Shown piece by piece: positions 292 to 64,000 of a DNA stretch of 64,000 nucleotides (its first letter is position 1; every line of letters begins with the position of its first letter). The notes beneath the pieces were generated by a model, which saw only the letters and a program-made list of their open reading frames with translations, searched no databases and was not told where the DNA came from. The stretch comes from an uncultured Eubacteriales bacterium. Lineage in GTDB: Bacteria > Bacillota > Clostridia > Oscillospirales > CAG-272. The stretch lies in the NCBI GenBank assembly GCA_934393265.1, contig CAKRQL010000001.1:916-64915 (forward strand), in the 5' to 3' direction. Position numbers and translations under genes: made by a program.

Positions 292-1353
292 ATGCAGGAT
301 ACCGAATACCGTGAGGCGGGCGAAGGCTCTGACTCCGGCGACGCACTCTATGGAGCTGTGCGCTCCATGCGCAGAAGCTATGCCAGGTATTTTCTCGCGC
401 TGATTGCATATACTGCCGTAGCTTATTTTGTCATTATCGCATTTGAGCTTGCAGCGATACTTATTTTCAATGCTCCGGAAATACTCAGTAACATATATGT
501 CAACTGGTTACTCAACACAGTGCCGACATATATATTCGGATTTGGAGTGTTCTACCTCATAATCCGGAAGATGAAAACCTACGGTAAAGAAAAAAGCAGG
601 ATAACCGTACCGGAATTTCTCATTCTCTTCTGCATCGCTAATCTACTCATGACCGTCGGTGCACTCATCGGGAACCTGCTCAATGCACAGATAAGCGCGC
701 TTATCGGCAAGGAGATAAAAAACGATGTCTCCGACATGATAGAGAGTACGCCGATATGGCTGATAATACTCGTCGTTGTCATCATCGGACCGCTCATCGA
801 GGAGCTTCTCTACCGTAAATTCTTCATAGATAAACTCGGGTTTTATAACGAGGGGGCGGCTATCATAACCTCCGCTCTTGCGTTCGGGCTCTTCCACGGG
901 AACTTTTATCAATTCTTCTACGCATTTCTCCTCGGAATTGTCTTAGCGGCAATATACTCAAAGACGCGAAACCTCGCATACTCTTATATCATGCACGCCC
1001 TGATAAATTTCTTCGGCTCTGTCGTCTCTATTTTTGTAATGCGAGCCTACGAGAAATACGATGAGTGCATAAAGCTCATTGAGGCGGGCAAAAAATGCGA
1101 CCCCGCCGTCCTTGCCGGAAGTGTACTGACTATTGTCTTCTACCTTATGGTTAATTACGGAACGGCGATATTCGGTTTTGTAATGCTTATCAGATGGCGA
1201 AGCAGAATATTCAGAAAACCCGACTCCGACCTCCTTGAGCTCTCTGCTCCTGATTGCAGAGCCGCCATTATGAAAAATATCGGCGTCATCGCATTTACGG
1301 TGCTCGCCGTCATACAGTTTGCTGTTGGAATTATCCAGAGTGCGCTCGCCTGA
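292..1353 (+). CDS. CPBP (CAAX/Abi) family intramembrane metalloprotease
   Basis: Polytopic membrane protein with the family motifs GPLIEELLYRKF, FGLFHGN and MHALINF. An AGGAG RBS lies upstream of the ATG. Confidence 0.8.
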   Translation: MQDTEYREAGEGSDSGDALYGAVRSMRRSYARYFLALIAYTAVAYFVIIAFELAAILIFNAPEILSNIYVNWLLNTVPTYIFGFGVFYLIIRKMKTYGKEKSRITVPEFLILFCIANLLMTVGALIGNLLNAQISALIGKEIKNDVSDMIESTPIWLIILVVVIIGPLIEELLYRKFFIDKLGFYNEGAAIITSALAFGLFHGNFYQFFYAFLLGIVLAAIYSKTRNLAYSYIMHALINFFGSVVSIFVMRAYEKYDECIKLIEAGKKCDPAVLAGSVLTIVFYLMVNYGTAIFGFVMLIRWRSRIFRKPDSDLLELSAPDCRAAIMKNIGVIAFTVLAVIQFAVGIIQSALA

Positions 1354-11200: not shown

Positions 11201-11776
11201 CTATACTCCATAGTAGTCCCGGATACCGCGGTATATACCGATCGCAAAGAGATTCGGCGAATATGCCATGAGCTCTGCCTCGTATTTATTAGTGATAAAT
11301 CCCATTTCCACTATTACGGCGGGCATTTTCGTTCTCTTCAGGACATAGAGCCCCGGACGATATACTATCCCCCGGTTGTGGAGCCCTGTGACAAGCGCAA
11401 GCTGCGCAAGAATACTCTCACCGAGGGCTACGGCAGCTGTTGCACCCGGTCCGTAAACAAGAGCCTCCGAGCCGTTGGCGTCCGGATTTTCCGACGCATT
11501 GGTATGGATCGACACAAACGCATCTGCGCCCCATGTATTCGCCTCTCTTATGCGGGCTGTCAGGCTCGACTGATTATCCGTGCCGAGTATTGTATCGGGA
11601 TCAGGTCGCGAGAGGCGCGGGGCGAAGCTTCCGTTTTCCGAAAGGTACCCGTAAAGGAGATCCCCGACGCGATAGGTTATATCCTGCTCGTAAAATCCGT
11701 TCCCCTCTGCGCCGGTGTTGTACCCGCGCGGATTGTGTCCCTGGTCTATGTATATTTTGATTGCCATACTGCCCAT
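11201..11776 (-). CDS. N-acetylmuramoyl-L-alanine amidase (Amidase_3 family)
   Basis: IYIDQGHNP, AFVSIHTNA and PAVIVEMGFITN are typical Amidase_3 zinc-site and fold motifs. Confidence 0.85.
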   Translation of the reverse strand: MGSMAIKIYIDQGHNPRGYNTGAEGNGFYEQDITYRVGDLLYGYLSENGSFAPRLSRPDPDTILGTDNQSSLTARIREANTWGADAFVSIHTNASENPDANGSEALVYGPGATAAVALGESILAQLALVTGLHNRGIVYRPGLYVLKRTKMPAVIVEMGFITNKYEAELMAYSPNLFAIGIYRGIRDYYGV

Positions 11777-56052: not shown

Positions 56053-57060
56053 TTATCTTCTGAATTTACCGATTATTTCATTAACCGTTCCTATATAGGC
56101 AAAGGTGTTCGGATATTTGCTTATTATATTTTTGAATTTCACCACCTGCCGCGGCTGTATGACGCAGACAAGGAGGCATCTGTTCTTATGCTCGAACATT
56201 CCCTCTGCCGGGAGGACGGTTGCCGTATGCCCGAGCTCGGAGATTATCTCCTGCGAAATCTCCTCACCGTATTCGGTCACAACCTCAAACTTCATAGCCG
56301 ACTTTGCACCGCACATAATAGTATCGGATGTGTGAGTTGAGACGAACATGTAGATAAGGGCTAAGAATATCGGCATGAGATTATCGTTGTATACGAATAC
56401 CGAAACGCCGACTATCACAAGATTCACGATGAATATAAGCGTCGGCACGCTCTTGCCCGGGTTCTTCGTCTGGATGGCGGCGGCAATAATATCCGCGCCG
56501 CCGGTAGAGGAATTCACACCGAGGGCAAGGGAGAGGCTTATACCGTATGTGACGCCGCCGAAGAGTGCGCAGACGATACGTGTCCCTATATCCCCGGAGG
56601 GAACGGTGGAAGCATGGCAAATCGTGAATACATATTTCGGGTCTATGATGTTATCGACCAGAAATAGGGCTATCATCATGAGTGCCGACTCAACAAGCGT
56701 GCTTACGAGAAACTCTTTTGAGAGCCGCTTCATTGTAAAGAGTGCGAGCGGCACATTTATGAGCAGAAGCAGCACAGAGCTGAAATCAAACTGTCCGACG
56801 CTCGTATCAACATTCAGAAGGTGCTTCACCATAGCGATAATTCCGCCGACGCCGCCGGGGGCGAACTGTGCGGGCGCTATAAAATAGTGGAAGCCGACGG
56901 CATAAATTACCGCCGCGAGCAGGAGATAAACGCCGCACTTTATATGCTGTGCACGCGGGCTCCTCTGCCGGATTACGAATATTTCCCGCTCCGGTCTGTC
57001 CGGCGTCTCCTCGTGGTCGTGGTGCTCACTCTGTACATTCTGTATAAGTTCAGGTATCAT
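56053..57060 (-). CDS. YitT-family membrane protein (DUF2179 C-terminal domain)
   Basis: The FAPGGVGGIIAMV and GGADIIAAAI membrane core plus a C-terminal TVLPAEGMFEHKNRCLLVCVIQPRQVVKFKNII domain. The start is uncertain (57060 or 57156). Confidence 0.8.
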   Translation of the reverse strand: MIPELIQNVQSEHHDHEETPDRPEREIFVIRQRSPRAQHIKCGVYLLLAAVIYAVGFHYFIAPAQFAPGGVGGIIAMVKHLLNVDTSVGQFDFSSVLLLLINVPLALFTMKRLSKEFLVSTLVESALMMIALFLVDNIIDPKYVFTICHASTVPSGDIGTRIVCALFGGVTYGISLSLALGVNSSTGGADIIAAAIQTKNPGKSVPTLIFIVNLVIVGVSVFVYNDNLMPIFLALIYMFVSTHTSDTIMCGAKSAMKFEVVTEYGEEISQEIISELGHTATVLPAEGMFEHKNRCLLVCVIQPRQVVKFKNIISKYPNTFAYIGTVNEIIGKFRR

Positions 57061-57408
57061 ATTTTTTGACTTCCCCTTCGGAAGAGTGATTTTTATTTTC
57101 CATGCCGGACTATTATACTCCTTTCCCAGACTATTTTCAAGTAGTGAAACAAACATTTTTGCCGTCTTTTGCGAATTGTATAAATTATGCAGAACCGGTT
57201 TTAGCTTTTTGCATGTATCGGTGCAAATATGTTATGTTTTATTTACATTTTACGCATCCGATTATATCTTTATATTGGTAGTTTCTTGTTTTCTCCCGAA
57301 ATATACTCGCCGAATGTAGATAAAAATATCAACCAAAGTCCGGGTGCTTGACATATTGCAAAAAAAAAGCGACTCGCAAAAACTTTCTGAAAATTCTGAA
57401 AAATCCAC

Positions 57409-57437
57409 TTGACAAGCGGTTTTCCGTATGCTATACT
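57409..57437 (+). promoter_or_regulatory. Sigma-A promoter of the heme-type operon
   Basis: TTGACA, 17 nt, TATACT. Confidence 0.6.
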
Positions 57438-57448
57438 TTTCCCGTTGA

Positions 57449-57464
57449 GTTAGCATAGGCTAAC
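57449..57464. promoter_or_regulatory. Operator-like palindrome 1
   Basis: GTTAGC-ATAG-GCTAAC, 12 nt downstream of the -10. Confidence 0.5.
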
Positions 57465-57529
57465 GTTAATGTCGGCACAAGGACGAGGATTTTATTCCTG
57501 CCGGTACCGGCTTATTTTTCAGAACAACG

Positions 57530-61140: not shown

Positions 61141-62393
61141 TGTTTACCGAGCGGTATAAAAGCCACCACGACGCATCGCGTAACCTCAAAAGCCGCTACA
61201 CCTCCGGCACCGCGGGAGCAGATTATCTCTCCGCGGTGCTCGCCGGAGAGGCACAAAGCCGCCGTGTAATTTATCTTCACGTTCCGTTTTGCAACAAGGT
61301 TTGCTCGTTCTGCCCTTTTCACCGTCCGGATGAACTGAACCGGCGGGAATATCACAGGTATCTCATAGACGCGATACGAAAGGTGCAGGATTACCCGTAC
61401 ATGCGTGCGCCGATTGACGCTGTAAACTTCGGAGGCGGGACGCCGACATCGCTCTCCCCTGCGCAGATGAAAGCCGTACTTTCGGAGCTGCATAACAGCT
61501 TTCAGGTAGCTCCGGGCGCGGAGATCAGCGTCGAGACCTCAGCTACCGGGCTCTCCGACGAGATGATAGATGTTCTCCTTGACGGCGGTGTCAACCGTCT
61601 GTCCGTGGGAATACAAACCTTTGACGACGGGGCGCGCCGCCTGCTCGGCCGGAGGGGCGACGGAGAATTTGCCGCGTCCCGCGTGGCGGCGGCTATCCGC
61701 GCCGGAATACGGAATACGAGCGTCGACCTGATATACAACTATCCGGGGCAGACGAATGAGCAGCTGCAGGCGGATATCCGCACTATCGCGAAGCTCGATG
61801 CTGCGGGGATTTCATTTTACTCTCTGATGCTGCATGAAAAGACCCCGCTCTACCGTCGCCTCGATGATGAGACAAAGGCTAAAATGCAGGATCTGCGCCG
61901 TGAAAAGGAGCTCTTCGACATGATTCTCGACGGGCTCGCTCCCCATGGCTACAAAATGCTTGAGCTGACGAAGCTCGTAAAGGACGGGCGCGACCGGTAT
62001 GACTATATGGAAATACGGCACAGCGGCGGGAGCTGCATTGCGCTCGGTCATGGTGCGGGAGGCAACATAGAAAACTATTTCTACCACAATTCGGACACTG
62101 TGCCGGATATTTCGGAGAATGTGCGTATATGCTCACGCGGGCGTGTTCTGCTCCCGGAATTCAGGGTTCTCGACTCGCTTATCTATGCCCTGCAAAAGGG
62201 GCGCGCGCGTCTCGCACCATACTCGGAGCAGCTCGGAACTGACCTATTATCTATCTTCGGCGAAAAGCTCTCGCTCTTTTCGGAAGGGGGCTTTGTACAG
62301 GTCGACGGCGACGAGCTTACCCTGACGCGCGACGGCGCATTTTTCGGCAACAATATTATTTCGGAACTTATAGGCTGCATTACAGGCTGCTGA
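61140..62393 (+). CDS. HemN-family radical SAM enzyme, ChuW/HutW-like (candidate anaerobic heme-degrading methyltransferase)
   Basis: IYLHVPFCNKVCSFCPF (CxxxCxxC) and GGGTPT. 417 aa, embedded in a heme/iron-type ABC operon. Confidence 0.7.
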   Translation: MFTERYKSHHDASRNLKSRYTSGTAGADYLSAVLAGEAQSRRVIYLHVPFCNKVCSFCPFHRPDELNRREYHRYLIDAIRKVQDYPYMRAPIDAVNFGGGTPTSLSPAQMKAVLSELHNSFQVAPGAEISVETSATGLSDEMIDVLLDGGVNRLSVGIQTFDDGARRLLGRRGDGEFAASRVAAAIRAGIRNTSVDLIYNYPGQTNEQLQADIRTIAKLDAAGISFYSLMLHEKTPLYRRLDDETKAKMQDLRREKELFDMILDGLAPHGYKMLELTKLVKDGRDRYDYMEIRHSGGSCIALGHGAGGNIENYFYHNSDTVPDISENVRICSRGRVLLPEFRVLDSLIYALQKGRARLAPYSEQLGTDLLSIFGEKLSLFSEGGFVQVDGDELTLTRDGAFFGNNIISELIGCITGC

Positions 62394-62416
62394 AAAATCA
62401 AGGAAAGGAGCGGAAC

Positions 62417-62773
62417 ATGGAGCTTCATGCATCGGGAGAGGATTATCTGGAGGCGGTACTGATTATTGAGGAAAAGCATGGTGCGGCGCGCGCTGTCGAT
62501 ATTGCAGAGCACCTCGGAGTAAGCAAGCCGAGCGTCAGCCGCGCCGTTTCGCTTCTTAGGGAGGGCGGATTTCTGCGCTCGGCGGGCAATTTTCTCTATC
62601 TCACAGACGAGGGGCGGCAGGTCGCCGAAAAGATATATGAGCGGCACTGTTTTTTCAAGCGGCGGCTCATGGACGCGGGAGTTGACGAACGGACAGCCGA
62701 CAAGGAAGCCTGCCTGCTCGAGCACAGTCTGTCCGACGACAGCTTTGAAAAGCTGAAAAAGACCGCTACATAG
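62417..62773 (+). CDS. DtxR/MntR-family metal-dependent regulator (short form)
   Basis: SGEDYLEAVLIIEEKHGAARAVDIAEHLGVSKPSVSRAVSLLREGGFL. RBS is AAAGGAG. Confidence 0.8.
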   Translation: MELHASGEDYLEAVLIIEEKHGAARAVDIAEHLGVSKPSVSRAVSLLREGGFLRSAGNFLYLTDEGRQVAEKIYERHCFFKRRLMDAGVDERTADKEACLLEHSLSDDSFEKLKKTAT

Positions 62774-62787
62774 GCGGGAAAGATAAA

Positions 62788-62820
62788 ATCAGCCGGGGGT
62801 GACCCGGCTGATTTTTATTT
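62788..62820 (+). terminator. Rho-independent terminator of the operon
   Basis: ATCAGCCGGG-GGTGA-CCCGGCTGAT followed by TTTTATTT. Confidence 0.8.
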
Positions 62821-63015
62821 AGTTATGTAAGGTGTTCCGTATCTTGCGTAGTATTCTCCGGGGTGTCGGTTAAATCCAAATTCAAAAGACCCGCGTCATT
62901 CTTTTTTGCAGAAGAAAGTGCTCACAACGCATAAACGTTTTTTCGGCACTCAATTAACAGATTGGGAATTTTCCGAAACCGACAAAGCATTAGCACGGCA
63001 CTTGAAAAAAAGTAT

Positions 63016-63090
63016 AAAAAAACAAAAAAAGAAGATAGACCAGTCGGGAGTTACCCGGGTGACCAATGTTTCAGGTCTCATCTATCTTCT
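63016..63090 (-). ncRNA. Candidate small RNA A (closed hairpin plus U-tract)
   Basis: The predicted start (7th nt after the -10) is the first base of the 10-bp closing stem AGAAGATAGA/TCTATCTTCT (63030-63039 with 63081-63090). The interior is 41 nt. The minus-strand 3' tail is TTTTTTGTTTTTTT. Confidence 0.45.
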
Positions 63091-63197
63091 GCATATAGTA
63101 TACGCTACATTCTCGCAAAAGTCAACACTTAATTTTGAAAATCATCCCGGGGTGCGCAACCCGATATGATAAATATATTTGAAAGGACAAAGAAAAA
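63082..63197. repeat. Long conserved module, copy 1 (stem 3' arm, promoter, core, 5' region of the small ORF)
   Basis: Matches 63887-64000 with 3 differences over about 114 nt (805-bp period). Confidence 0.9.
63097..63125 (-). promoter_or_regulatory. Sigma-A promoter of candidate sRNA A
   Basis: The minus strand reads TTGACT, 17 nt (TTTGCGAGAATGTAGCG), TATACT. Confidence 0.55.
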
Positions 63198-63440
63198 ATG
63201 GCAGTAAAAAAGCGGTGGTTTCACAGAAAACGGACTTCTAAAAATCGCAAGCAGTATAGTGCTGCGGAAAAATTGGCTTATTATGAAAAGATGTCCGAAA
63301 AGCTCGGTCATGACTATGAATATGCGCATGACTCAAAATCCGCCTATTCTGTAGGTCATTATCAGGGGGCGAGTACCGCCTATCGAGATGTTACTTATGT
63401 CGGTACATATAACCCGATTTACACACTCGGACACTACTGA
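63198..63440 (+). CDS. Candidate small basic Tyr/His-rich protein (80 aa)
   Basis: MAVKKRWFHRKRTSKNRKQYSAAEKLAYYEKMSEKLGHDYEYAHDSKSAYSVGHYQGASTAYRDVTYVGTYNPIYTLGHY. A GAAAGGA RBS lies about 10 nt upstream. The 5' region is conserved in the next module copy. No plus-strand promoter was found. Confidence 0.4.
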   Translation: MAVKKRWFHRKRTSKNRKQYSAAEKLAYYEKMSEKLGHDYEYAHDSKSAYSVGHYQGASTAYRDVTYVGTYNPIYTLGHY

Positions 63441-63617
63441 CGGAGCGGAGAACATCAAGCTGAAACATAACATCGATAAAAATGACAACCGGGACTGCTA
63501 CATCAGACCTGTGGCTCAGATAGACAATAAAGAAAATTTTGAAGCTCCAAAGAAAAAATACCGGATACATGACAAAGATAAAACTTTGCTCGCAAAGCTT
63601 CTCGGCATGTTCCGGTG

Positions 63618-63690
63618 AAATAGAAAAAGGAAACGACCGCCATACAGCGCACTGCCACATCCGGATTTCTCCGGCAGACCCATCGTTTCC
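63618..63690 (-). ncRNA. Candidate small RNA B (closed hairpin plus U-tract)
   Basis: 8-bp closing stem GGAAACGA/TCGTTTCC (63629-63636 with 63683-63690), a 46-nt interior with the inner hairpin CCGGA-GAAA-TCCGG, and a minus-strand tail TTTTTCTATTT. Confidence 0.45.
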
Positions 63691-63697
63691 GTATCGT

Positions 63698-63726
63698 ATT
63701 TTATCATAGGTTTTCGCAAAAGTCAA
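63698..63726 (-). promoter_or_regulatory. Sigma-A promoter of candidate sRNA B
   Basis: The minus strand reads TTGACT, 17 nt (TTTGCGAAAACCTATGA), TAAAAT, with an extended -10 TG. Confidence 0.55.
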
Positions 63727-63767
63727 TACTTAATTTGAAAATCATTCCGGGGTGCGCAACCCGATAT
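63714..63767. repeat. 54-55-nt core element, copy 2
   Basis: TCGCAAAAGTCAATACTTAATTTGAAAATCATTCCGGGGTGCGCAACCCGATAT. The other copies are at 63113-63167 and 63918-63971. Confidence 0.9.
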
Positions 63768-63823
63768 AAGACTGGTCTTTTTCTTCAGAAGACCGCGCTG
63801 TTGTCCGGCATCACATAAAGAAG

Positions 63824-63895
63824 TATAAAAAAAGAAGATAGGCGAGGGGCGTATCTCATCCCCGTGGCGGTAAAACCGACCTACACCTATCTTCT
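63824..63895 (-). ncRNA. Candidate small RNA C (closed hairpin plus U-tract)
   Basis: 10-bp closing stem AGAAGATAGG/CCTATCTTCT (63833-63842 with 63886-63895). The 43-nt interior is unrelated to that of sRNA A. The minus-strand tail is TTTTTTATAC. Confidence 0.45.
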
Positions 63896-64000
63896 GCATA
63901 TAGTATACGCTACATTTTCGCAAAAGTCAACACTTAATTTGAAAATCATTCCGGGGTGCGCAACCCGATATGATAAATATATTTGAAAGGACAAAGAAAA
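63887..64000. repeat. Long conserved module, copy 2 (truncated by the window edge)
   Basis: Near-identical to 63082-63197. It ends at ...GAAAGGACAAAGAAAA, exactly where the small-ORF ATG would follow. Confidence 0.9.
63902..63930 (-). promoter_or_regulatory. Sigma-A promoter of candidate sRNA C
   Basis: The minus strand reads TTGACT, 17 nt (TTTGCGAAAATGTAGCG), TATACT. Confidence 0.55.

Follow-up and report, generated by a model that had tools for sequence, protein, structure and literature searches.

Beyond the dtxR gene, at the right end of a 64,000-nucleotide (nt) stretch of DNA from an uncultured Eubacteriales bacterium of the Clostridia (assembly GCA_934393265.1, contig CAKRQL010000001.1, positions 916 to 64,915; this whole stretch is called the window below), the sequence turns AT-rich and carries three short units, each composed of a repeated core, a minus-strand promoter, a hairpin and a U-run. 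The locus raises the question whether such units are genes for small RNAs (sRNAs) and, if so, what these RNAs might act upon. As judged from sequence, it is very probable that the units are real sRNA genes, linked to a family of proteins of predicted MazF-like fold whose genes converge on them.

Three promoter-hairpin units in the window

The three cores (54-55 nt) occur nowhere else in the window when both halves are searched as exact matches, with no occurrence expected by chance. The minus-strand promoter adjoining each of them scores 10/12 with a 17-nt spacer, and these promoters make up three of the five sigma-70-like matches in 62300-64000. In each of the units A, B and C the hairpin begins 6-7 nt past the -10 box and is followed directly on its 3' side by a U-run. 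A and C have a common closing stem, AGAAGATAG/CTATCTTCT, with unrelated interiors, and B is closed by GGAAACGA/TCGTTTCC. Fold z-scores are -3.8 for A and -3.6 for C, and only -0.9 for B when it is taken alone. Across the region of the units the G+C content is 0.37-0.46, as compared to 0.50-0.63 upstream. The parts of the units are as follows, related loci being designated by L numbers and open reading frames by ORF.

63016..63090, minus strand: predicted sRNA A, a three-way-junction hairpin (63030-63090) closed by AGAAGAUAGAU/GGUCUAUCUUCU around two inner hairpins, with a U-tract behind it (63016-63029); folding energy -24.4, z -3.8
63097..63125, minus strand: sRNA A promoter, TTGACT, 17-nt spacer, TATACT; hexamers invariant in alignment A5, the distant L095 copy included
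63113..63167, no strand assigned: core 1, a divergent control region that holds the UP-like/-35 region of the sRNA promoter, the inverted repeat CGGGG-TGCGCA-ACCCG (63148-63163) and TATGAT, upstream of the ribosome-binding site (RBS) of ORF80
63616..63690, minus strand: predicted sRNA B, with the stem GGAAACGA/UCGUUUCC (63629-63690), inner hairpins and a U-tract reaching the TGA stop of ORF76 (63616-63618); a member of the B-type family in alignment A2, 122 bits with covariance model R1
63698..63726, minus strand: sRNA B promoter, TTGACT, 17-nt spacer, (TG)TAAAAT (alignment A2)
63714..63767, no strand assigned: core 2, followed by a short hairpin and no ORF
63824..63895, minus strand: predicted sRNA C, a hairpin (63833-63895) with the closing stem of A around two inner hairpins, its interior differing from that of A, and a U-tract behind it; folding energy -29.0, z -3.6
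63902..63930, minus strand: sRNA C promoter, TTGACT, 17-nt spacer, TATACT
63918..63971, no strand assigned: core 3, followed past the window edge by a short Arg-rich ORF (MAFRNKRR..), a 3' fragment of tRNA-Lys(CTT) and the left junction of a Rep_trans element of about 10 kb

As far as the units themselves are concerned, the initial annotation was essentially correct: its three cores, the hexamers with their 17-nt spacers, the hairpins starting just after the -10 box with the U-run at once, the common A/C stem with unrelated interiors and the different B stem, and the AT-richness of the region were all recovered. Its picture of an array that runs off the window with a period of 805 bp did not hold. 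In the contigs that extend the window (L001 and L004) the similarity of A and C stops about 5 nt past the edge and gives way to the tRNA-Lys fragment and the Rep_trans element, and the period rests on one pair of copies. The units are regarded as remnants of separate integrated elements and not as a tandem array. The degenerate copy that had been placed at 62838-62890 was not sustained either, as it folds with z = +0.24 and gives no match in the pattern search, leaving a weak resemblance by eye (TATCTTGCGTAGTAT / TCTCCGGGGTG). Just downstream of it comes the open frame 62852-63169 with its partner-gene remnant.

Every module, in the window and beyond, is followed by a short inverted repeat rich in G and C. 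It is placed between the -35 box of the sRNA promoter and the RBS that belongs to the next gene on the plus strand, and its position is kept though its sequence is not. Such repeats are located at 63147-63163, 63747-63763 and 63951-63967 in the window, and at the equivalent place, with different sequences, in the B' module of L004 (15793-15809), in L095 (2732-2752), in L086 (about 1000-1014) and in L092 (7594-7606 and 9273-9285). The sequences comprise CGGGG-TGCGCA-ACCCG, CGGGT-GTGTACA-GCCCG, CACTC-TGTGCGCAG-GAGTG, GCAGG-ATTCG-CCTGC and CCCG-TTGT-CGGG, and the repeat could be an operator or a hairpin of the 5' untranslated region (UTR).

A 19-mer formed by the UP-like element and the -35 box (AAATTAAGTRTTGACTTTT) recurs before tRNA and other genes in many metagenome-assembled genomes of Clostridia and in phage contigs (L019-L077), and its recurrence before tRNA genes means that the sRNA promoters resemble those of stable RNAs. 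When sequence collections were scanned with the -35/UP half of the core (AAAAGTCAAYACTTAATTT), all matches were strong Firmicute promoters of a generic kind, belonging to tRNA and other genes, and none was a homologue of the units; the other half or the whole core gave no match in IMG/VR or the JGI metagenomes. No relevant match to Rfam 15 was obtained for the window region (E<=10), L007 (E<=1) or L083, L086, L092 and L095 (E<=0.1), and ARAGORN called no tRNA or tmRNA inside the modules.

The predicted RNA gene and its convergent partner gene

More distant elements were reached through homologues of a 112-amino-acid (aa) protein. In L086, L089, L092, L095 and L098 no relation to the core of the window is left beyond the -35 box, while the unit itself is kept directly behind the partner's stop codon and in the opposite orientation, in the order TTGACT or TTGACA, 17-nt spacer, TAnnnT, 6-7 nt, stem GGAAACGG/CCGUUUCC and U-run (alignment A2). 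The distance from the -10 box to the stem is fixed at 6-7 nt in every homologue though the spacer sequences differ. In all of the 11 or more pairs compared, which comprise intact and divergent relatives, the unit of promoter, hairpin and U-tract adjoins or overlaps the stop codon of a gene for a basic protein of about 110 aa. Homologues of the A type were met with compensatory changes in L003 and L005, and in their native context in L095 (2608-2673). Across these loci the promoter hexamers, their spacing and the U-tract persist where the flanks have diverged.

The structure of the B type, as derived with RNAalifold, is a three-way junction of 21 pairs, eight of which show compensatory changes on both sides, and the inner helices 2 and 3 covary too. 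On this named structure 97.3% of the alignment cells are paired, as against 31-56% in controls with slid partners. Among 500 column shuffles none reached the observed value for the percentage paired, for either of two counts of compensatory changes or for the covariation score, and four did so for further pair types. In 7/7 B-type homologues the RNA of the minus strand has a more stable fold than that of the plus strand, with consensus energies of -27.1 and -18.9 kcal/mol, respectively, and several recurrent G-U pairs of the B type would become A-C mismatches on the plus strand. The B-type covariance model R1 recovers all B modules at E<1e-21 and the A, C and D modules at E = 1e-5 to 2e-2, with further modules in L092. 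Throughout, the hairpins are branched structures of 61-87 nt, and in the first module of L092 the branched hairpin is followed by a separate simple terminator. Certain unpaired positions are kept as well: in the B family the bases GCAGUG are invariant and a loop containing GUAU is conserved. The hairpin interiors are hypervariable: 22 of 44 interior columns differ between A of the window and A' of L005, as compared to 14 of 360 columns outside (Fisher p = 3e-15), the inner stems being kept through compensatory changes. The proposal of the initial annotation that these are independent minus-strand RNA genes of about 70 nt is well supported by comparative evidence, given that promoter, stem and U-tract persist in unrelated flanks, that the stems covary and that the B-type G-U pairs favour the minus strand; its remark that core and hairpins were not recognised as any known RNA family agrees with the Rfam scans of the window region and its relatives.

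A profile of the partner family finds a member directly upstream of every module found:

L004 and L083: one pair, B' type
L086 to L088: one pair, B type; in L088 the end of the contig cuts the hairpin
L089: one pair, B type
L098: one pair, B type
L095: two paralogs, one with a B-type RNA and one with an A-type RNA
L007: an N-terminally truncated gene, D type
L092: six paralogs, with the closing stems CAGAUGAG, GGAAACGG, GAAAACGG, AAGAACUCAC, GUAGAUGA and GGGAAGCAG

The native A-type context in L095 is a paralog of the 112-aa protein (HPHYVFGRVGNKYKSFGLTHT..NPNP..) that ends at 2609 and is immediately followed by the A-type hairpin, then TATACT, a 17-nt spacer and TTGACT of the minus strand, an inverted repeat and a gene similar to ORF80. 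L079, a related element that lacks the partner gene, gave no convincing module, the best match being at E = 0.04. The protein neighbours vary by locus, with 117, 106, 79, 182 or 598 aa upstream and 100, 297, 170 or 538 aa or minus-strand genes downstream, and no conserved adjoining gene that might encode a co-transcribed protein antitoxin of the MazE/PemI kind was found across the loci compared. Since a family member precedes every module while its neighbours change, the conserved unit consists of the protein gene and the convergent sRNA gene, and this unit is duplicated and has diverged many times. In L092 (1438-9700 of a 14-kb contig) the six MazF-fold paralogs, some of them truncated, each have a convergent hairpin module, and a repeated core, different in sequence from that of the window (GCATTTGTCAAGTACTTTTGCGAAAAAA..), is common to these modules, a second case of module stacking.

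In L086 (about 990-1250, plus strand), and also in L087, a plus-strand promoter (TTGACA, 17-nt spacer, TACAAT) diverges from the sRNA promoter and is followed by a long structured leader, a hydrophobic ORF of 26 aa (MYITLTELVMLLTLLIAFADFIIRRK) and a terminator, a unit much like a type I toxin gene of the classical kind in appearance.

The partner is a basic, beta-rich protein of 100-125 aa with a long basic N-terminal extension, whose family comprises 293 clusters at 50% identity (E<=1e-3) and contains a GHP-beta-strand motif and a THS motif that are nearly invariant. Searches for the family in Pfam, PHROGs, NCBIfam, PADLOC and the sequences of the PDB were negative, as were those in PLSDB plasmids, INPHARED phages (tblastn with one member) and IMG/VR. 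When 80 members were run against Pfam, none matched PemK_toxin (PF02452), and the sole match at E<=0.01 was a weak one to SH3_CYT4 in a single member. An AlphaFold2 model built with 80 diverse members reached a mean per-residue confidence (pLDDT) of 93.4 and a predicted template-modelling score (pTM) of 0.82; a model built with 10 close sequences was unusable (pLDDT 49.5). All 50 top PDB structure matches are MazF proteins (from S. aureus, B. subtilis and M. tuberculosis, MoxT and YdcE being among them), 49 of them with a probability of 0.85-1.0, and the top matches among viral models are endoribonucleases of the PemK/MazF type. The fold is therefore modelled as MazF/Kid/CcdB-like, and the GHP motif, as an (R/H)P-beta-strand, together with the THS motif recalls R29-P30 and T52 of MazF, a resemblance that is suggestive only.

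Proposed mechanism and rival readings

With a MazF-like fold, a toxin is the most economical reading of the partner protein, and we consider it fairly probable that the pair is of the toxin-antitoxin (TA) kind. Among the functions listed in the initial annotation, that of an antitoxin RNA in a type I- or III-like cassette fits best, the conserved partner being the convergent gene of predicted MazF-like fold. From sequence we infer expression of the pair, toxicity of the protein and antisense action of the RNA; the specific antisense mechanism of a type-I-like pair, in which a convergent sRNA would act as antisense to the mRNA of a MazF-fold toxin, is a tentative proposal with somewhat less than an even chance. 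In such a pair a strong sigma-A promoter would start the minus-strand transcript at the foot of the three-way-junction hairpin of about 62 nt, and transcription would end at the U-tract to yield an RNA of about 70-75 nt. The partner mRNA, having no terminator of its own, would have to run through the hairpin region. On the plus strand the hairpin is not followed by a U-tract, and no more than about 45 nt separate the sRNA -35 box from the next RBS in L089, L092 and L098; plus-strand transcripts therefore probably carry the complement of the sRNA. An abundant antisense sRNA would meet the 3' region of the partner mRNA through loop-loop contacts and then form a full duplex, which would lower the level or the translation of the toxin mRNA, as RatA does on txpA and SR4 on bsrG. 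As any mutation in the interior alters sense and antisense together, interiors can diverge fast and become element-specific, and specificity could drift or be selected to differ between co-resident elements. The presence of multiple paralogous pairs with distinct stems in one contig (L092) fits the TA reading.

The layout has close parallels in the Gram-positive type I systems (txpA/RatA, bsrG/SR4, yonT/SR6 and those of C. difficile prophages), in which a cis-encoded convergent sRNA with its own promoter and terminator overlaps the 3' end of the toxin gene and acts by forming a duplex with the toxin mRNA, and which like the present pairs lie in prophages or integrated elements (PMC4147584, PMC6563280). 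Such a 3' overlap characterizes all Gram-positive type I systems described so far (PMC4147584), and a convergent antisense gene with its own predicted promoter, abutting or overlapping the stop codon, was encountered in all of the 11 or more pairs, the overlap here being limited to the stop codon and the 3' UTR, unlike that of systems of the txpA/RatA type. The components differ: the toxins of those systems are hydrophobic membrane peptides of <60 aa and their sRNAs measure 180-220 nt, whereas here the protein is basic and soluble, has about 110 aa and a predicted MazF-like fold, and the RNA of about 70 nt is essentially one branched hairpin. That the rule of small hydrophobic peptides is not absolute is known from SymE/SymR and RalR/RalA, which offer precedents for a soluble, nucleic-acid-targeting toxin of about 60-113 aa paired with a small antisense RNA (PMC4147584, PMC4041452). 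SymE has an AbrB-like fold and RalR is a DNase, neither combining a MazF fold with a 3'-convergent hairpin RNA as here; SymR overlaps the 5' end and RBS of its target, and RalA pairs over 16 nt. RalA needs Hfq. With type II MazEF/PemIK (Kid-Kis) the partner shares the predicted fold, at template-modelling (TM) scores of 0.5-0.6 to the S. aureus, B. subtilis and M. tuberculosis proteins, and differs from it in the missing PemK match in Pfam, the missing profile-profile signal, the missing conserved protein antitoxin and the long basic N-terminal extension.

Several observations weigh against the proposed pair. The structural resemblance to MazF is of moderate degree (TM 0.49-0.60, Foldseek E 0.015-0.45), and sequence methods see no relation to MazF, neither Pfam nor PDB sequence searches nor hhalign, which gave a probability of 0.08 against E. 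coli MazF, B. subtilis MazF and Kid. With few exceptions, the type I toxins known so far are small hydrophobic peptides. The activity of the sRNA promoters and the ends of the RNAs are predictions, covariation of the stem is also expected of a plain terminator, and the strand asymmetry is mixed in the A/C/D type, where A' folds better on the plus strand and D equally well on both. The invariant unpaired GCAGUG is not required by a pure cis-antisense role and hints at protein binding. In L003 the closing stems of all three relic modules carry mutations, so that relics may simply be decaying and their retention may be passive.

The hint at protein binding leads to the main rival, a type-III-like mode in which the structured sRNA would bind the MazF-fold protein and block its active site as antitoxin or pseudo-substrate, without acting as antisense; we consider it unlikely. 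Type III systems (ToxIN, CptIN, TenpIN, AbiQ) likewise are borne on mobile elements and join a structured RNA to a protein with the Kid/MazF core, shared by ToxN, CptN and AbiQ (PMC5086642), and the partner is MazF-like by predicted fold. The three-way-junction architecture is kept, as are the unpaired GCAGUG and the GUAU-containing loop of the B family, and each paralog has its own RNA type. The layout, however, is the opposite, since a type III antitoxin consists of tandem direct repeats, processed by the toxin and placed upstream on the same strand in an operon with one promoter and an internal terminator (PMC5086642), and here the RNA gene is single and not repeated, is driven from a promoter of its own and is located downstream, on the other strand. 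Furthermore, half of the interior differs between A and A' while the flanks, including a protein-coding remnant, differ in 14/360 columns, which is easier to reconcile with antisense pairing than with a protein-RNA interface, and neither PADLOC nor Pfam finds a ToxN/AbiQ match for the partner, which shows no sequence match to ToxN, CptN or TenpN.

The remaining explanations are less well supported. A non-toxic regulatory antisense RNA like lambda OOP, P22 sar or a plasmid countertranscript, likewise given a low probability, would make the partner a nucleic-acid-binding factor, and the constitutive convergent promoter would limit readthrough from early genes (115, 117 and 112 aa) into downstream structural genes or tune the basic protein. 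Countertranscripts of mobile elements (lambda OOP, P22 sar, pT181 RNAI/II, ColE1 RNA I) are constitutive antisense RNAs of 50-110 nt built of hairpin and terminator, OOP having 77 nt, and their loop sequences set specificity or incompatibility and hence diverge fast. The convergent geometry, the size and layout resembling those of OOP RNA, the divergent promoter or operator-like inverted repeat next to the module, and the position of the L004/L083 module, with an early block controlled by Xre on one side and genes for large membrane or secreted proteins on the other, all agree with this. Countertranscripts, however, control replication initiators or lysogeny regulators from fixed positions, and here the RNA travels with the MazF-fold gene in several copies and without linkage to rep; the module follows the small protein gene and not a position in the element, lying beside the Xre gene in L095 and L086 and occurring six times in L092 with differing downstream genes, and several paralogous pairs per contig are typical of TA families and not of a single developmental switch. 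That the units are terminators or insulators only is improbable: the hairpin and U-tract would then stop minus-strand transcription, the 'promoter' would be the -35/UP side of a bidirectional control region and the short transcript would have no function. A hairpin with a U-tract is indeed a canonical intrinsic terminator, in which stem covariation is expected, and AAATTAAGTGTTGACTTTT is a generic strong Firmicute promoter found before tRNA and other genes. Termination alone would not account for branched hairpins of 61-87 nt with covarying inner helices, nor for a -10 box always 6-7 nt from the stem despite differing spacers, and the separate simple terminator in the first L092 module means that the branched part is not needed for it.

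It is scarcely credible that the hairpins act at the DNA level, as a folded attC-like site, an attachment site, a single-strand origin or a packaging signal. Conserved closing stems around variable interiors recall attC, the number of modules varies between strains in the manner of a cassette array, and the elements encode rolling-circle initiators of the Rep_trans or G2P kind; the actual attachment site, however, is the tRNA-Lys anticodon-loop region, stacked remnants with fragments of element genes account for the differences in copy number, no integron integrase is present and the intact circular element has one module tied to one gene. Conserved sigma-A hexamers and a U-tract would have no purpose in such sites, and the strand favoured by the G-T pairs is the complement of the coding strand, which presumably is the packaged one. 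attC or cassette sites were accordingly rejected, the junctions lying in tRNA-Lys and not in the hairpins and the closing stems (AGAAGATAG, GGAAACGG and others) differing from R''/R' (..AAC / GTT..), and a single-strand origin or packaging signal is disfavoured by the promoter hexamers and the strand asymmetry. Of equally slight probability are trans-acting guide or seed sRNAs whose variable interior would target host genes or foreign nucleic acids, the logic read from the units in the initial annotation because a conserved scaffold encloses differing interiors arrayed at one locus. This logic was not borne out, as no complement of at least 13 nt was found in the window or in 10 related loci and elements (a small part of the genome) beyond the homologous modules and one 13-nt match in L079 at chance level, and no effector gene such as Cas, Argonaute or TnpB of IS200/605 lies nearby. 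In sum, of the initial proposals the independent RNAs are retained, the antitoxin-like role fits best among the functions, and the tandem array and the guide logic found no support.

Element remnants at the tRNA-Lys hot spot

In the window itself the genes that would have been partners of the three RNAs are broken, and the remaining features of the interval are as follows.

62785..62815, plus strand: dtxR terminator, the left border of the hot spot, outside the modules
62852..63029, plus strand: C-terminal remnant (..DWEFSETDKALARHLKKSIKK..) of a MazF-fold gene, 'paralog-2', whose N-terminal part and stop codon are lost; dead partner of sRNA A
63198..63440, plus strand: ORF80 (MAVKKRW..YSAAEK..), downstream of core 1, its 3' end overlapping the toxin-gene fragment in another frame
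63355..63618, plus strand: frame with a fragment of a MazF-fold gene, 'paralog-1' ('ORF76', 63388-63618); dead partner of sRNA B
63791..63832, plus strand: last 12 or so codons (..RHHIKKYKKRR*) of another paralog-2 gene, to be compared with the C-termini ..RHYKKTYRANRK.. and ..RHYAKKYKKEED..; presumably the remainder of the sRNA C partner

With the family profile the stop-to-stop frame 62852-63169 scores E = 1.5e-9 in hmmsearch, a score for the whole frame, of which the homologous part ends by reading at about 63029; the remnant aligns by eye with the C-terminus of the L095 gene at 2253-2609 (..GWNFSKEDHGIVRHYKKTYRANRK). The frame 63355-63618 scores E = 4.4e-25. The ORF76 fragment holds the residues from about 46 onwards (FTHSDTTDG..) and has lost the N-terminal strand with the RKGHP motif, and its DNA shares 82% identity with the 3' portion of the gene that encodes the intact 112-aa protein (L004 15329-15667). 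These coding ends also account for the conserved AAGTATAAAAAAA to the left of the hairpins, which is not part of an RNA scaffold and is the Lys-rich C-terminal coding end of the partner gene; for the same reason, conserved GTATAAAAAAA at this place was rejected as a plus-strand -10 box. ORF80 and a 100-aa ORF (L004 15851-16153), both directly downstream of cores, are basic and have motifs of the type YS(A/S)xE/G, neither having a database match, and a start like that of ORF80 (MAKNYSSAEK) follows the native A-type module in L095.

The window was extended through contigs that encode the matching DtxR and ORF80, where the window coordinate equals the L001/L004 locus coordinate + 52416. In the strain type of the window (L001, L004, L006 and L009-L011) core 3 is followed by the short Arg-rich ORF, the 3' part of tRNA-Lys(CTT) up to the anticodon loop and the element of about 10 kb, whose genes run in the order small ORF, Rep_trans (458 aa) and Xre-like repressor (on the opposite strand), then 115, 117, 112, 100, 311, 173, 591 and 705 aa; in L003, L005, L007 and L008 tRNA-Lys(CTT) is intact at the equivalent place. 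A Rep element that is 93% identical lies elsewhere, in L078, at the matching point of a tRNA-Lys(TTT) fragment, and a relative with 54% identity in Rep (L079) carries the 3' half of tRNA-Lys(TTT) as an attP-like site. The 9912-nt contig L083 has a terminal overlap of 141 nt, which indicates a circular form of about 9.8 kb of a close relative; this circular relative and the attP-like site in L079 stand in for the right junction of the resident element in the strain of the window. Taken together, the tRNA-Lys junctions, the strains with an intact tRNA and the related elements identify the interval from dtxR to tRNA-Lys as an integration hot spot, with the anticodon-loop region as the attachment site, and the material between dtxR and the tRNA is made up of stacked remnants of integrated elements. 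Thus, the set of modules (A, A', B, B', C, D) differs by strain, and L005 has fragments of the 311-aa and 112-aa element genes between dtxR and the tRNA. An intact element holds one module, B', between the 112-aa gene and the next gene (L004 15655-15850; L083 4137-4330), and the intact B' module lies 4.2 kb past the window edge, inside the resident element.

The elements of this family (L083 1-9912; L004 11690-20357) measure about 10 kb, encode Rep_trans, or a G2P-type Rep in L089 and L092, and integrate in the tRNA-Lys anticodon-loop region; no integrase was found in the Rep_trans elements. Their proteins include signal-peptide/transmembrane proteins of 584-591 aa and polytopic proteins of about 700 aa, and among those tested against Pfam, PHROGs (E<=0.01), NCBIfam and PADLOC only Rep_trans and Xre gave matches, apart from a weak one to DUF2142 for the homologue of about 700 aa in L079. 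Just downstream of the tRNA-Lys(CTT) terminator, L005 carries a long hairpin (GACACUC..GAGUGUC) and a terminator at 11536-11665 on the minus strand; the hairpin is duplicated in L003, L007 and L008, repeated along with partial tRNA 3' ends (TGGTGCACCC), and these repeats have the appearance of stacked scars left at attachment sites, among which there may be a further small RNA. An HNH-endonuclease gene and a gene of the aminoglycoside phosphotransferase (APH) family lie between dtxR and the D-type module in L007 (10434-12058) and L008 (10407-12015), so the hot spot gathers other cargo too. Elsewhere in the window, 57000-57500 has a G+C content of 0.36-0.37 within a stretch of 0.50-0.59 and may be an inserted or intergenic AT-rich segment.

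In the window, as in L005, truncated protein genes stand beside intact sRNA genes, and the window appears to contain three orphan sRNA genes in element remnants, the loss of the toxin before the RNA being the order of decay expected for TA pairs. These genes would be orphan antidotes left by earlier elements. No description of such a protein-sRNA pair was found in the searched literature, Rfam, Pfam or PADLOC, and what is new here comprises an sRNA family with covariation support that is absent from Rfam, a protein family of 293 clusters at 50% identity that carries no annotation, and uncharacterised elements of about 10 kb with Rep that integrate at tRNA-Lys in human-gut Clostridia. Even if only the sRNA genes were real, they would still form a new and well-supported family of sRNAs in mobile elements. 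Should the pair work as proposed, a toxin fold of types II and III would be joined to the layout and likely mechanism of Gram-positive type I systems, and a soluble, probably RNA-cleaving toxin would be added to a class dominated by membrane peptides.

Hypervariable interiors and orphan sRNAs beside dead toxin genes offer a test of how antisense specificity diversifies, and the chromosomal relics allow testing for protection against related mobile elements. The furthest-reaching version of the proposal, a new RNA-controlled class of TA systems with a MazF-fold toxin and a stand-alone convergent sRNA of about 70 nt that would owe its specificity to the hypervariable interior, and whose relic sRNAs at the hot spot would disarm incoming elements (anti-addiction) or interfere with them, is put forward as a doubtful possibility. 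If relic sRNAs do act as antidotes, the interval between dtxR and tRNA-Lys would constitute a heritable, RNA-based record of past invaders.

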